A stretch of 64,000 nucleotides of DNA from a virus (Duplodnaviria; Heunggongvirae; Uroviricota; Caudoviricetes). The DNA lies in IMG/VR virus record IMGVR_UViG_2718218135_000001, positions 32,001 to 96,000 of that record; one strand, written 5' to 3'. The notes under the pieces were generated by a model that was given only the letters and a program-made list of their open reading frames with translations, was not told the DNA's origin and did no database searches. Shown here one piece after another: positions 13,648-62,430 of this stretch; position 1 is the stretch's first letter; each line of letters starts with the position of its first letter. Both the position numbers and the translations under genes were made by a program.

Positions 13648-13662
13648 AAAACAAATTGGTTA
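13648..13662. promoter_or_regulatory. degenerate AAACAA box
   Basis: aaaacaaattggtta. Confidence 0.35.
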
Positions 13663-13673
13663 GGCACAGAATT

Positions 13674-13687
13674 AAACAAGTTGTTTA
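13674..13687. promoter_or_regulatory. AAACAA-N2-TTGTTT operator-like palindrome
   Basis: aaacaagttgttta, 40 bp upstream of the TerS start, followed by hairpin gagcgca-agga-tgcgctc. Confidence 0.5.
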
Positions 13688-13726
13688 GGAGCGCAAGGAT
13701 GCGCTCTGAGTGTTTTAGAGGGACCT

Positions 13727-14368
13727 ATGACTGTAGAAAAAGACGAGAGCAAAACTCGCCTGACACCAGCTGAGTGGGCAGAAGCCGAAGCGAAATGGAC
13801 TTCTGGCGAATACACACTCTCCAGGCTGGAGGAAGAGTACGGCATTCGTCGTGAAACGCTCTCCAGACATTTCAAAAAGCGTGGATTAGAGAAAGGCGCG
13901 GACTCCGTTGGGAAGATGGTGCGCGAGTCGCTCAAATCCGACGCAGAGCTGCGTGCGAAGGCGCGTGCAGAGAAAATCGAAGAGCGCCGGACTCGTTACG
14001 ACGATTGGGCGTTCGCACTCGGTCGTATGGTGATGCATGAGGTGGCCATAGCCAAGAAGGACGGCAGGCCACTGGCAGCCATCGAAGATGACCTGAAGAG
14101 TCTCCAGCGTGCCAGCGGCACACTTGCTAAGTGCTTCGAAATATCGTCGAAAGCGCTCGGTATGGATCGCGTGGAGAACGAGGACGACGAAATCCCGAAC
14201 CTGGTATTTGGCGAACTTACGCCTTCCCAGGTGGCGCAGCTGCGTAAGGAAGATGATGAGCCGGATCTGATTGATGACGATCTGCTTGAGTCACTCGAAG
14301 AGGAAGCACTGAGCGAAGCTGAGGGCGATTCTGAAGCGTCTGGTGATGAAAGTGATGGGAGCGTCTGA
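13727..14368 (+). CDS. terminase small subunit (putative)
   Basis: 213 aa immediately upstream of TerL; acidic C-terminal tail. Confidence 0.55.
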   Translation: MTVEKDESKTRLTPAEWAEAEAKWTSGEYTLSRLEEEYGIRRETLSRHFKKRGLEKGADSVGKMVRESLKSDAELRAKARAEKIEERRTRYDDWAFALGRMVMHEVAIAKKDGRPLAAIEDDLKSLQRASGTLAKCFEISSKALGMDRVENEDDEIPNLVFGELTPSQVAQLRKEDDEPDLIDDDLLESLEEEALSEAEGDSEASGDESDGSV

Positions 14369-14370
14369 CT

Positions 14371-15627
14371 ATGGCCATCCCGTCGTCTCTGAGTCTCGTA
14401 CAGCTGCATTCTGGGCAGATGCAAGTCTTCCAGTCGCCACATCGTTTCAAAGTGGTGTGTGCGGGTCGACGCTGGGGTAAATCCCGGTTGTCGATCTCCA
14501 CCATCATCCGCGCGGCAGCCAAAGAGAAGAAGCAACGTGTCTGGTATGTCGCACCGACTTACCAGATGGCTCGCCAGATCTTGTGGGATGACCTGCAGGA
14601 AGTTCTGCCGCGCAAATGGGTTCGTAAGAAAAACGACACCACGATGACCATCGTGCTGAAGAACGGCTCTGAAATCGCGCTGAAAGGTGCGGATAAGCCC
14701 GATACGCTTCGTGGTGTGGCACTGCACTTTGTGGTGCTCGATGAATTTCAGGATATGAAGCCTGACACCTGGTACAAGGTACTGCGTCCGACACTGTCCT
14801 CCACCCGTGGCGGTGCGCTGATCATCGGTACGCCAAAAGGCTTCTCCGAGTTCCACAAGCTGTGGACTATCGGTCAGAACAAAGATTTGCAACGCAAGGG
14901 GCAGTGGAAGAGCTGGCAGTTCGTTACGGCCGATTCTCCGTTCGTACCGAGCGCGGAAATCGAAGCAGCGAAGAACGATATGGACCCTAAATCGTTCGCA
15001 CAGGAATACCTGGCCAGCTTCGAAAACATGTCCGGACGCGTTTACTACCCGTTCGACCGCAATGTGCATGTGAAGCCACTCCAGTTCAATCCGAAACTGC
15101 CGATCTGGGTTGGTCAGGACTTCAACATCGACCCTATGTCATCGGTCATCCTGCAACCGCAGCCAAATGGTGAACTGTGGGCTGTGGACGAATTGGTGTT
15201 GTTCTCTTCTAACACGGCTGAAGTGTGTGACGAGCTGGAGCGTCGATACTGGCGCTGGAAATCTCAGGTCACTATCTTTCCTGACCCGGCAGGTGCGTAT
15301 CGCCAGCACGCACGCGGCGAATCTGACGTCGACATCTTCAAAGAGAAAGGTTTCCTTCGAGTCGATTATCCGAAGAAGCACCCGCCGATCGCAGACCGTG
15401 TTAACGCAGTGAACCGCATGTTGATGAGTGCCTCGGGCGAAACCCGGTTGTACATCGATCCGAAGTGCAAACACCTCATCGACTCGCTGGAGAAGGTGAT
15501 CTACAAGCCAGGCTCACGCGATATGGATAAGACTGGCGGCATCGAACACAGTGCGGATGCGTTGGGTTATCCGGTTCATCGTAGGTATCCGGTGAAAAAT
15601 CGTGTTATTCTTGGTGGATCTAGATAG
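14371..15627 (+). CDS. terminase large subunit
   Basis: Walker A CAGRRWGKS, Walker B VVLDEF, C-terminal nuclease-type acidic residues. Confidence 0.85.
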   Translation: MAIPSSLSLVQLHSGQMQVFQSPHRFKVVCAGRRWGKSRLSISTIIRAAAKEKKQRVWYVAPTYQMARQILWDDLQEVLPRKWVRKKNDTTMTIVLKNGSEIALKGADKPDTLRGVALHFVVLDEFQDMKPDTWYKVLRPTLSSTRGGALIIGTPKGFSEFHKLWTIGQNKDLQRKGQWKSWQFVTADSPFVPSAEIEAAKNDMDPKSFAQEYLASFENMSGRVYYPFDRNVHVKPLQFNPKLPIWVGQDFNIDPMSSVILQPQPNGELWAVDELVLFSSNTAEVCDELERRYWRWKSQVTIFPDPAGAYRQHARGESDVDIFKEKGFLRVDYPKKHPPIADRVNAVNRMLMSASGETRLYIDPKCKHLIDSLEKVIYKPGSRDMDKTGGIEHSADALGYPVHRRYPVKNRVILGGSR

Positions 15628-15642
15628 GTAAGTACTTACCTA
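15625..15642. promoter_or_regulatory. perfect 18-bp palindrome taggtaagtacttaccta
   Basis: overlaps the TerL stop codon, 19 bp before the portal start. Confidence 0.55.
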
Positions 15643-15660
15643 AGCGGAAAGGAAAATCAA

Positions 15661-60378: not shown

Positions 60379-61482
60379 ATGAAAAACACTTTTGATAAAG
60401 CACGCGCAGCAGAAAACACCTCTAGAGAAGCCATCGAGTATCTCGAACGCGCTTCCGGTTTGTCAGCAGTGTCGACCACCAATTTCGACGGTGACATGTC
60501 GTTTTCTTCCGCATTCATGTTATTCACTCGCTTATCTTTGCTGATAACGAGACGTCGACCTGAAATAGCTGTTCATTGTATTTTGATACATGTAATGCCG
60601 CATATCTGTGAAGTAAAAGTAAGTGACATTAGTAGGGTTTTAGTCAACCAGCTGGTGAACCCATTAATACTTGAGGGCAAGATCGTCCAGGGCAGACGTG
60701 TGTTCTCGCTGATGAAGCAGTTTCTCAGTTGGTGTGCATTTCAGGGCTTAATTGATACATCCCCATTGAACGATATGTCGCTTAACAGAGTAGCCGGTGG
60801 CGCGAAGCCCACGCCGCGCGAGCGCAAACTGACCGACGCAGAGGTCTGGGTCTTTTGGAATGTATGGGACTACTTCAACGTATGTGAGGGTACAAAGTGG
60901 GCGGCCAGATTATGCCTTGTAGCGGCCAGACGACCAGATGAAGTGCTCCGAGCTAAAAGATCAGAATTCAACCTCGAATATAATTTATGGAATCAAGGAA
61001 CGAGGAATAAATCGGCTCGCCAGCACTCGTTACCATTAAGCCCGCTAATGCGCAAATGTGTTGAGGAGCTGATCAAATACGGAAAAGGCAGCCAGTGGCT
61101 TGTTCCTTCAAACAAGAAACAGGGTGAGGATGTGCCAATGTCTAAGGTGGCCATATCACAGGCGTTGAGAAGGATTTTAGAACGTCCAGAGTTGATGGAG
61201 CTTGAGCCATTTACTCCCCGAGATTTGCGTCGTACTGCGCGTAGTTACTTCCCCGCGTTAGGCATAAGTCAGGAGGTATCCCGCAAAATTATGAACCACA
61301 GTCTTGAGGGGATAGATCGAGTATACGATCGACACGATTATATAGACGAGATGCGAGACGCCTTAAACAGTTTTTCGGCGTACATCGCATCAATCGTAGA
61401 GAAACAGGATTTAGAGGAGATAGATCATAAGTTCAAGGGAGATCGACTCGCTACTGAGCTAATCCGTGTAAATTTCTCATAG
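60379..61482 (+). CDS. tyrosine site-specific recombinase
   Basis: catalytic region with conserved Arg, PRDLRRT box and C-terminal YDRHDY tyrosine; true start may be internal. Confidence 0.8.
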   Translation: MKNTFDKARAAENTSREAIEYLERASGLSAVSTTNFDGDMSFSSAFMLFTRLSLLITRRRPEIAVHCILIHVMPHICEVKVSDISRVLVNQLVNPLILEGKIVQGRRVFSLMKQFLSWCAFQGLIDTSPLNDMSLNRVAGGAKPTPRERKLTDAEVWVFWNVWDYFNVCEGTKWAARLCLVAARRPDEVLRAKRSEFNLEYNLWNQGTRNKSARQHSLPLSPLMRKCVEELIKYGKGSQWLVPSNKKQGEDVPMSKVAISQALRRILERPELMELEPFTPRDLRRTARSYFPALGISQEVSRKIMNHSLEGIDRVYDRHDYIDEMRDALNSFSAYIASIVEKQDLEEIDHKFKGDRLATELIRVNFS

Positions 61483-61866
61483 CGACTTGATTGCCTCAAC
61501 AACCCGCTCCGACGCACCACGTTGGTCACCGAAACGTCGACGGAAGGCTTCCAGAACTAGTTTTTCATCTTTAGTCAGAGGGGCTGTGCCTTCGTCGCGA
61601 AAAAACTCTAACAGCTCTGGATGACGCTCTTCCAGCACCATTAGCATCAATCGGACCGAATCGGCATCCAATGCTTTAGCCAACGCTCTGACCTTGTCGA
61701 TCGGAAGCGGGATTTTGCCGCTCTTGATAAGTGAAAGATTGTTAGGATTTTTATAGCCTGCTTCTTTCGCGATGGTCGCCTGGCTTTTCGGAGAAATCGC
61801 GATTAAAGCGTCAATGTAAGCAGCGTAGCGACCTACTTTAGCTTCTGTTATTTCGTTGGTAGCCAT
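61477..61866 (-). CDS. HTH (XRE-like) transcriptional regulator
   Basis: 129 aa; convergent with recombinase and overlapping its 3' end by 6 nt. Confidence 0.55.
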   Translation of the reverse strand: MATNEITEAKVGRYAAYIDALIAISPKSQATIAKEAGYKNPNNLSLIKSGKIPLPIDKVRALAKALDADSVRLMLMVLEERHPELLEFFRDEGTAPLTKDEKLVLEAFRRRFGDQRGASERVVEAIKSL

Positions 61867-61897
61867 AATTATCAACCTGCGTGTTTTGATTTTATAT

Positions 61898-61911
61898 GGT
61901 AAGTGCTTACT
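61898..61911. promoter_or_regulatory. TAAGTA-type palindromic box
   Basis: ggtaagtgcttact in the promoter region of the HTH regulator. Confidence 0.4.
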
Positions 61912-62122
61912 GATATTACATCAAAGGTTAGTGTTGTAAAGACTTATCTATTTTTTTTCGTAGAGTTATTGACCGCAAAAGGCTTCATTAATAGACAACT
62001 ATCTAAAAAACAACTCATTTAAGAACTTAAAACTAAGTTGTATTTGATATATAAGTATTCCGTATTGATACAATAGGTAGTAGTATTGCAAGGCATTTAC
62101 GTGTTCAGTTGGATGATATGAA

Positions 62123-62335
62123 ATGAAAAAAATAACTTCTAATTTGATCGCCCTTGAGGTCGGACATACGGTTTCAATTGACGATGATGGGGCAGCAGCC
62201 ATACTCACTGAACTGCCAACAAAGTCTTTGTTACTTGACATGAAAGACGCAACCGCATACATCTTTGAGCTAAAGGGCAAGTGCTTCACTCTCATCAATA
62301 CCGGCTGCGGTTCAGTAGCCGTCCGCACTATTTAA
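62123..62335 (+). CDS. hypothetical small protein (70 aa)
   Basis: ORF in AT-rich region; followed by 12-bp-stem hairpin at 62361-62393. Confidence 0.35.
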   Translation: MKKITSNLIALEVGHTVSIDDDGAAAILTELPTKSLLLDMKDATAYIFELKGKCFTLINTGCGSVAVRTI

Positions 62336-62413
62336 CACACCCCTCCCATCCTCTCTAGCGCCTGTACGAACAGATTAGATGCCTGTTCGTACAGTGATAA
62401 ATTACGCACATCA

Positions 62414-62430
62414 GAAAACAAATTGTTTTA
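62414..62430. promoter_or_regulatory. AAACAA-N2-TTGTTT operator-like palindrome
   Basis: gaaaacaaattgtttta, 18 bp upstream of ATG 62448. Confidence 0.5.

Follow-up and report, generated by a model that had tools for sequence, protein, structure and literature searches.

A dispersed 13-bp palindrome as a probable DNA operator in an SSU5/pHCM2-type phage-plasmid

Omega of pSM19035 (inc18 plasmids) is a ribbon-helix-helix (RHH) protein that acts as a global regulator and also binds the centromere as partner of the ParA-like protein Delta. Here we describe a 13-bp palindrome, AAACAA-N-TTGTTT, that is scattered over a 64,000-nt stretch of phage DNA (positions 32,001 to 96,000 of IMG/VR record IMGVR_UViG_2718218135_000001), hereafter referred to as the window. 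Over its packaging and head region, the window shares 95.7% identity with Salmonella phage SSU5 and about 80% with phage-plasmids of Klebsiella and E. coli, and its parA segment matches E. coli plasmid NZ_CP040928.1 at 100% identity. These matches identify the window as a portion of a phage-plasmid of the SSU5/pHCM2 type. We compared it to three complete annotated relatives, namely SSU5, Cyrano of E. coli LF82 and Klebsiella pJN2-26. The palindrome is probably the DNA operator of one repressor encoded by the element itself, and the system appears to resemble the dispersed operators of P1 C1, RK2 KorB/KorA and pSM19035 omega. The site recurs far above chance at many promoters and is conserved while its flanks diverge, as would be expected of a regulon in general.

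The comparison to omega concerns a 119-aa protein encoded directly after parA, which is our favoured candidate for the binding protein. Both are small proteins with a flexible N-terminal tail, encoded together with a small ParA-type ATPase, and in both systems short repeat units, direct or converging, would couple partition to transcription by lying as the same sites in several promoters. However, omega binds heptads, arrayed in runs of 7-10 at three promoters; here, about 18-20 promoters have a single 13-bp palindrome each or occasionally a pair, and the targets include phage early, replication and packaging genes. No sequence similarity of the 119-aa protein to omega is detectable, and its RHH membership is putative. 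RK2 (IncP) has for KorB/KorA a 13-bp palindrome of the same 6+1+6 form at about a dozen dispersed sites, near or distant from promoters, and the binder is again a partition protein, partnered with ParA (IncC), with global control of replication, maintenance and transfer. KorB differs in being a large ParB-family CTPase with a helix-turn-helix (HTH), a type represented in the window by ParB_N proteins that we do not favour, and its site is unrelated in sequence (TTTAGCSGCTAAA). The plasmid prophage P1 likewise has one repressor, C1, over many scattered operons, including that of a DnaB-like helicase gene (ban in P1). Its operators are, however, asymmetric 17-mers bound by a monomeric-type repressor that controls its own gene, whereas here the site is palindromic and the region of the CI-like repressor's own gene is without it. 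ParG of TP228 and other type Ib proteins resemble the 119-aa protein in gene order (a small Walker ATPase, then the small protein), in the disordered basic tail and predicted strand-helix-helix core, and in autoregulation of the operon through a site ahead of the ATPase gene, as may be the case here. Their tetramer-box arrays are confined to the own locus, whereas the sites described here are genome-wide with no array at parA. Finally, a member of PF03614 is encoded in the window and many sites are found in 5' leaders shortly before the Shine-Dalgarno (SD) sequence, which recalls FljA on fliC and T4 RegA, although the fliC leader has no significant match, some conserved sites are outside the relevant mRNAs and the palindromic symmetry is unexplained as RNA.

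The initial annotation of this DNA had described the repeat with a spacer of two nucleotides. That literal form, AAACAANNTTGTTT, has no match in the window, also when one mismatch is allowed; direct reading of the sequence at the positions given there shows a single central base. The window contains 6 exact copies of AAACAANTTGTTT (at 73, 2143, 13674, 41851, 44780 and 62416) compared to 0.01 expected, and 11 copies with at most one mismatch (adding 1274, 1652, 3041, 3805 and 13649) compared to 0.38 expected. None of 100 dinucleotide shuffles, a control of the kind proposed in the annotation, reached either 6 exact or 11 near-exact copies, and block shuffles gave the same result. The five copies named at the outset are all present within 0-2 nt of their reported positions, while one exact and five one-mismatch copies had been overlooked. 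The genes assigned to them (terS-like, parA, DnaB-like helicase and the cobT-like gene at 62448) are correct, with site-to-start gaps of 40, 35, 19 and 19 nt, respectively. In its full form the site is AGA-AAACAA-N-TTGTTT with one extended arm. The copies in the window and three of the genes behind them are as follows.

73-85: exact copy AAACAAGTTGTTT where an A+C-rich tract begins; TATATT hexamer 8 nt upstream; counterparts at SSU5 90740, Cyrano 94605 and pJN2-26 25869.
1274-1286: copy AAACAACATGTTT with 1 mismatch at inner position 8, in the leader of the cassette open reading frame (ORF) 1319-1537; GACAAT 13 nt upstream.
1652-1664: copy AGA-AAACAACATGTTT with 1 mismatch, in the leader of cassette ORF 1677-2006, with the ATG 12 nt on; TATTGT 14 nt upstream.
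2143-2155: exact copy AGA-AAACAATTTGTTT, in the leader of cassette ORF 2167-2478, with the ATG 11 nt on; TATTAT 14 nt upstream.
3041-3053: copy TAACAATTTGTTT-TCT with 1 mismatch, of the class that abuts the -35, with the extended arm on the right; it follows a terminator-like hairpin and is directly upstream of the promoter-like GCCTTAT..GAAAAT of ORF 3113-3487; orthologues at Cyrano 97190 and pJN2-26 28539.
3805-3817: copy AGA-AAACAATTTGTTA with 1 mismatch at an outer position, in the leader of ORF 3838-4320, with the ATG 20 nt on; TTGACG..GATAAT upstream.
13649-13661: copy AGA-AAACAAATTGGTT with 1 mismatch, the upstream half of the terS pair; GG identical in SSU5 and Cyrano.
13674-13686: exact copy AAACAAGTTGTTT, the downstream half of the terS pair, followed by a GC hairpin and the terS-like start 40 nt on.
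41851-41863: exact copy AGA-AAACAAGTTGTTT in the parA promoter/leader, downstream of TTTACA-N17-TAGGCT, with the ATG 35 nt on.
44780-44792: exact copy AGA-AAACAAATTGTTT, 4 nt after the TAGTAT of the promoter-like TTGATC-N17-TAGTAT, with the ATG of the DnaB-like helicase 19 nt on.
62416-62428: exact copy AGA-AAACAAATTGTTT, 12 nt after TAAATT (TG-extended), with the cobT-like gene 19 nt on.
13727-14368, plus strand: terS-like/DNA-binding-domain gene, the first gene of the packaging-head operon, behind the double site.
44812-46152, plus strand: DnaB-like replicative helicase, downstream of site 44780.
62448-64000, plus strand: cobT-like gene, continuing past the end of the window, downstream of site 62416.

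The relatives contain the site in similar numbers. SSU5 has 11 exact copies and 20 sites with at most one mismatch, Cyrano has 9 and 18, and pJN2-26 has 11 and 17, compared to at most 0.33 sites expected in each. In SSU5, where coding sequence makes up 88% of the genome, all 20 sites fall between genes (P ~2e-19). The same downstream targets are found in each genome, namely the terS pair, parA, the DnaB-like helicase, the cobT-like gene, nrdB, the DNA methyltransferase gene, the array of small 'cassette' genes and the A+C-rich non-coding tract. Loss of the motif at orthologous promoters of related phages had been named as one observation that would speak against an operator; the motif is kept in SSU5, Cyrano and pJN2-26, and the exact 13-mer is retained in lineages with only 65-70% DNA identity. 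At dnaB and cobT, the promoter spacers and leaders diverge while AGAAAACAA-N-TTGTTT is constant and the central base is free. The two copies of the terS pair are 25 bp apart, and in pJN2-26 they are replaced by a single fused site through an exact 25-bp deletion between the copies. Upstream of parA, the 74 related loci all have an exact copy at this position, and divergent motif-dense lineages have AGA-AAACAT(C/T)TTGTTT (1 mismatch) at the equivalent place. In a scan of viral contigs with the extended motif, all loci with multiple hits fall in this supergroup.

The flanks of the site follow an orientation rule. AGA is directly to the left of 8 of the 11 window sites and the mirror TCT is on the right in none of those 8, which shows that the motif is not fully symmetric. 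Over the four genomes, 39 sites have AGA on the left; 34 of them are within 40 nt of a start codon (leader-type) and none has a downstream promoter. TCT is on the right of 8 sites, all of which are directly upstream of a cassette-type promoter, and no site has both flanks. This distribution means that the extended arm always points towards the promoter core. At 14 sites in the three genomes scanned, a -10-like hexamer (GATAAT or TATTAT, 5/6 match) is located 13-14 nt upstream, and in the '-35' class the palindrome is centred about 38 nt before the inferred start. Sites of the two classes together bracket some promoters, at a distance of 51 bp in SSU5 and Cyrano and with the same layout in pJN2-26. 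According to the initial annotation, one palindrome connects the early cassettes to packaging, partition and replication, as the genome-wide operator of a single dimeric DNA-binding protein. That proposal is well supported in silico by the intergenic promoter-side placement, the conservation, the paired sites around promoters and the extended arm towards the promoter; an action at the DNA level, repression and the identity of the binding protein are what we infer.

Some features beside the sites can be added here. An additional half-site, AGAAAACAAG, is located at 95-104, downstream of site 73, and the A+C-rich stretch that follows this site (window 1-240) contains no ORF and keeps its layout in SSU5, Cyrano and pJN2-26; it may be a non-coding transcript under the same control. 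The cassette promoters (1230-1270, 1610-1650, 2100-2140 and 3760-3800) have a common box, cTTTGaCGCCTTtt, overlapping and following the -35-like hexamer, which recurs in all four genomes as a conserved element in addition to the palindrome. At 62362-62394, shortly before the cobT-like promoter, there is a perfect 12-bp inverted repeat (CTGTACGAACAG / CTGTTCGTACAG), both arms of which are changed together in Cyrano and pJN2-26 (CTGCGCGAA.. / ..TTCGCGCAG). These compensatory changes suggest that the stem-loop is genuine; it would be a terminator behind the cro-like gene or else a hairpin with a regulatory role.

In the mechanism that we propose, the operator copies would lie over the start site or early leader of sigma-70-like promoters (centre at about +4 to +14) or against the -35 (centre at about -38), and RNA polymerase would be obstructed by a symmetric dimer, or a dimer of dimers, at these positions. 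The repressor would in this way hold the early cassette, helicase/primase, cobT-polymerase, nucleotide-metabolism and terS-head genes low in the plasmid state and throttle the parA operon. If the partner of ParA is the binder, its own operon would be autoregulated via site 41851, and the dispersed copies would serve it as further operators and possibly as centromere sites. A wider form of this idea is possible but on the whole doubtful: the ParA partner would combine the roles of centromere-binding protein and global silencer of the phage programme, the approximately 20 palindromes would together form a collective centromere and the operators, and the Hfq-like FljA homologue would add a second layer. 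If so, segregation, copy number and the lysis-lysogeny state would be read via one protein-DNA interaction; for example, a rise in copy number could titrate the ParA partner and derepress lytic genes. The tandem-Sm FljA homologue would then be a recruit from flagellar phase variation that now controls mRNAs of the element itself.

Phage-plasmids of the SSU5/pHCM2 type are common in clinical enterobacteria, and the parA module by itself occurs in 735 plasmids sequenced from Klebsiella, Escherichia, Enterobacter, Salmonella and Citrobacter. Some members of the group carry resistance genes according to reviews. Control of lysogeny in these elements is essentially undescribed. A conserved site at about 18-20 promoters defines a regulon, gives a probe for the repressor and suggests how packaging, replication and partition genes are co-ordinated. 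Binding by the ParA partner would extend the omega/KorB principle, in which a partition protein is a global regulator, to a tailed phage.

The partition operon that is preceded by the palindrome contains the following two genes.

41899-42564, plus strand: small ParA/MipZ-type ATPase of 221 aa without an N-terminal DNA-binding domain, the first gene of the operon.
42564-42923, plus strand: 119-aa protein, starting at the parA stop codon; favoured candidate binder.

The ATPase has matches to Pfam AAA_31, MipZ, CbiA and ParA, and the layout is that of type Ib partition, with a ParA of about 200-220 aa lacking the N-terminal DNA-binding domain and a small gene directly after it. We regard the 119-aa protein as a plausible, though tentative, candidate for the binder of the palindrome. 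It is 95-96% identical to its SSU5 and Cyrano counterparts, compared to 63-71% for the FljA-like protein and 64% for the CI-like protein where the latter is not absent. In homologues down to 48% identity, the K/Q-SRTMS-x-EDE strand, the PQGRPTRGK tail and the FTRSDVIRAAI helix are invariant while the rest diverges, and the divergent motif-dense lineages carry a homologue in which these segments are intact. The family is small, with 18 representatives among 1.84 billion proteins, and the distant homologues also follow a ParA/MipZ ATPase gene. In relatives, a sub-threshold RHH_1 match falls on the predicted segment (P0108, E 0.005 and 17.1 bits with a cut-off of 20.5; P0116, E 0.11). The disordered basic tail, the short strand and two helices together with the gene position lead us to liken the protein to RHH proteins of the ParG/omega type. 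From its sequence it may thus be described as a putative RHH centromere-binding/repressor protein with a basic flexible tail, the fold being tentatively assigned.

In the Cyrano lysogen, for which per-gene RNA-seq values are available from the supplement of the LF82 paper (PMC9928086; background 9.8), of the 15 genes that immediately follow a site, 12 are at 5.7-12.9, that is, at most 1.3 times background; as most Cyrano genes are silent (median 9.8), this low expression is a consistency check and not specific evidence for repression. The exceptions above background are dnaB (21, 2.1 times), CYRAN_111 (25.5, 2.6 times) and parA (49.8, 5 times), and the small gene after parA, CYRAN_29, is at 89. 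The limited weight of the expression values is one of several points against a DNA operator that is bound by the 119-aa protein. A sigma-70 consensus scan called none of the cassette promoters, the -35-like TTGACG of which is only 15-16 bp from the -10, and the promoter positions were accordingly inferred by reading. Orthologous sites are not independent of each other, and the 8 '-35' sites amount to about three promoter families. The 119-aa protein of the window has no Pfam match at E<=10, a PDB sequence search with it returned nothing, and hhalign comparisons to CopG, omega and ParG were not significant. Its AlphaFold2 (AF2) monomer model is of low confidence (predicted local distance difference test, pLDDT, 65), with helices at 48-60 and 70-84 after an extended KSRTMS and two more helices; Foldseek found no match for this monomer model, and the RHH strand could form only in a dimer. 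In the region 41200-44100 there is a single palindrome upstream of parA and no repeat array as in classical type Ib centromeres. The palindrome is also missing or degenerate upstream of parA in two distant modules of ParA plus small protein, one of which (L337) has three AAACAA half-sites (P 0.013) and the other (L338) nothing significant. Finally, about 60% of the sites end 11-21 nt upstream of a start codon, just 5' of the SD sequence, which also suits a translational operator.

The last point belongs to the main rival explanation, in which the motif acts as RNA in 5' leaders (AGAAAACAANUUGUUU) and is bound by the following protein.

6190-6714, minus strand: FljA-family protein, a predicted tandem Hfq/Sm-like RNA binder.

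Binding would block translation and so destabilise the transcripts, as FljA does on fliC mRNA, giving a translational regulon over the whole phage-plasmid like that of T4 RegA. FljA-type proteins are described to act post-transcriptionally on fliC mRNA (PMC2652032; bioRxiv 10.1101/2025.10.27.684867). The protein encoded here matches Pfam Flag1_repress (PF03614) over the full profile (1-170/170; E 6.4e-69, 231.6 bits compared to a cut-off of 24). Its AF2 model (pLDDT 82) consists of two tandem helix-plus-five-strand units with no HTH, and Hfq accounts for 50 of the 50 top PDB fold matches (template modelling score to target 0.70-0.85, root-mean-square deviation ~1.2 A). Although it is annotated as a 'transcriptional regulator', the model points to a protein of the RNA-binding type. 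Among phages, the gene is essentially confined to the SSU5 type, where 12 of 12 records contain it, those from non-motile Klebsiella included; its homologues are nearly all on plasmid contigs of 100-110 kb, and true flagellin repressors are only 36-38% identical. Since the phage-plasmids of a non-motile host such as Klebsiella keep the gene, flagellin is probably not its target, and it probably serves the element itself. It is also expressed in lysogens (CYRAN_114, at 18 in overnight LB and log2 7-8 in other conditions), and the AGA flank of the 34 leader sites is 5' in the sense strand, as an RNA site would allow.

Nevertheless, we consider an RNA operator unlikely. The conserved sites that abut the -35 have the extended arm reversed and are outside the mRNA of that promoter in sense orientation, yet they are conserved in three lineages, which is a geometry of the DNA type. 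As RNA, the palindrome forms a hairpin of 0 to -2.2 kcal/mol, which does not explain the exact complementarity of the arms, and Rfam has no family at any site. No compensatory double changes were seen in the palindrome; the variants are single changes, and in orthologous variants (AAACAAATTATTT, at the SSU5 dnaB site and in a whole class of cobT sites) the only G-C pair is broken. In one lineage that has the identical 13-mer, the FljA-like protein is just 33-36% identical and is without the otherwise invariant AEVWPRDY block. The fliC leader of Salmonella and Citrobacter reaches a best score of -2.5 with the position weight matrix of the site, compared to at least 15.7 for true sites (P ~0.10). 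A link to FljA via this leader was thus discarded, the shared part being only the inner CAAGUUGU, 17 nt before the AUG, which is not significant by the matrix; the E. coli leader is without CAAGUUGU. Autoregulation of the FljA-like gene was discarded as well, since no site is found upstream of it in the window or in Cyrano.

A second and still less probable explanation is that the palindrome is not the site of an element-encoded regulator, being instead a host-factor site, a promoter or terminator element, or a passenger of duplicated promoter cassettes. Six of the 11 window copies are indeed in the cassette array, where common promoter ancestry is evident from the same GCCTT box and the same 13-14 nt spacing. 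At some sites (SSU5 85602 and 87625) a TTTGTTTT run after the hairpin could be a terminator U-tract, and a host protein conserved among enterobacteria would equally explain an invariant site. However, the unrelated promoters of terS, parA, dnaB, cobT, nrdB and dmt have only the motif in common and keep it while their flanks diverge, and the gap to the -10-like hexamer ranges over 4-14 nt, which is not compatible with a fixed promoter element. We know of no enterobacterial factor with an AAACAA-N-TTGTTT site. Our literature search found no paper that names an operator for SSU5/pHCM2-type elements and none that contains the 13-mer; a preprint on heteroresistance was set aside since it deals with an unrelated phage-plasmid family.

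The weakest explanation takes the binder to be a CI-like protein, one of two HTH candidates in the initial annotation.

61477-61875, minus strand: CI-like HTH repressor; its control region, 61876-62122, is without the motif and has GTAAGTGCTTAC at 61899 and TATTGATACAATA at 62063 instead.
13264-13530, plus strand: 88-aa ORF, the other candidate, which lacks a Pfam domain and falls in a PHROG of unknown function.

A P1 C1-style master repressor that binds the dispersed palindromes as a dimer would fit the annotation of the CI-like protein as putative master repressor of Cyrano and its lysogen expression (CYRAN_45, 96), its place among the transcriptional regulators in PHROG, a recognition region GYKN-NNLSLIKSGKIPLP that is nearly invariant across three identity classes of 64-98% and would suit an invariant site, and a motif copy about 540 bp from the gene, ahead of the cobT-like gene, but it is very improbable given that the CI/cro-like intergenic region has the 13-mer in 0 of about 50 distinct loci and contains other invariant palindromes instead (GGTAAG-N2-CTTACC immediately after the CI promoter, a member of a second dispersed family that is a more natural operator set for this protein, and TATTG-N3-CAATA), and that SSU5 keeps all 20 AAACAA sites with the whole integrase/CI/cro module absent. 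The 88-aa ORF did not hold up as binder either; it has no recognisable DNA-binding domain, and its Cyrano homologue (CYRAN_123) is silent in the lysogen at 7.8.

The second dispersed palindrome has the core GTAAGTACTTAC and an extended form of approximately ATAgGTAAGTACTTACcTAT, with 15 sites at up to 2 mismatches in the window compared to about 2.5 expected; for GGTAAGNNCTTACC there are 10 sites compared to 1.39 expected. Its positions are 2546, 10095, 15628, 17142, 19069, 28679, 35489, 39251, 43997, 54881, 58488/58492, 61899 and 63352. Most of these sites fall between genes of the structural, lysis and middle regions, with one in the CI-like gene's own promoter, and SSU5 and Cyrano have about 25 each. 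The family could be the operator set of the CI-like repressor or a late/middle promoter element. The integrase/CI-like/cro-like module of the window (60379-62335), Cyrano and pJN2-26 is absent from SSU5 (41776-42761), which fits the isolation of SSU5 as a lytic phage; both dispersed palindrome families are retained there. In the CI/cro-like intergenic region, the 5+3+5 palindrome at 62063-62075 (TATTGATACAATA) has an inner TGTATCAA that is invariant in 8 of 8 aligned lineages, with flanks that are variable in some, and it is probably an operator of the immunity switch. A second exact match to its pattern is located at 1249-1261 (TATTGCGACAATA), inside a cassette promoter.

Other candidates for the binder of the AAACAA palindrome were rejected. 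Two proteins with a ParB N-terminal domain are encoded in tandem at 10110-11476 (plus strand), followed by ATPase-like genes, just ahead of the packaging genes. In the Cyrano lysogen the homologues of both are silent, at 5.0 and 9.5, which makes these proteins unlikely as the plasmid partition ParB, despite the annotation, and as the binder. Other Cyrano proteins expressed in the lysogen (CYRAN_43, 98, 117, 102, 34 and 30) have no recognisable DNA-binding domain, only an S24 peptidase and a DUF2971 being recognised among them.

An approximately 55-bp palindrome, CCTGCTTCCGTATATA...TATATACGGAAGCAGG, is present in two copies, at 13555-13612 upstream of the terS double site and at 43855-43907 upstream of the orf241-dnaB region. 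The SSU5 and Cyrano records start in the right half of the terS-side copy, which suggests that it may mark the packaging or genome-end region. Rfam matches above the gathering threshold were obtained for IS009 at 38957-39155 (plus strand, 189.6 bits), within the tail-fibre-assembly region, and for a tRNA at 59235-59306 (plus strand).

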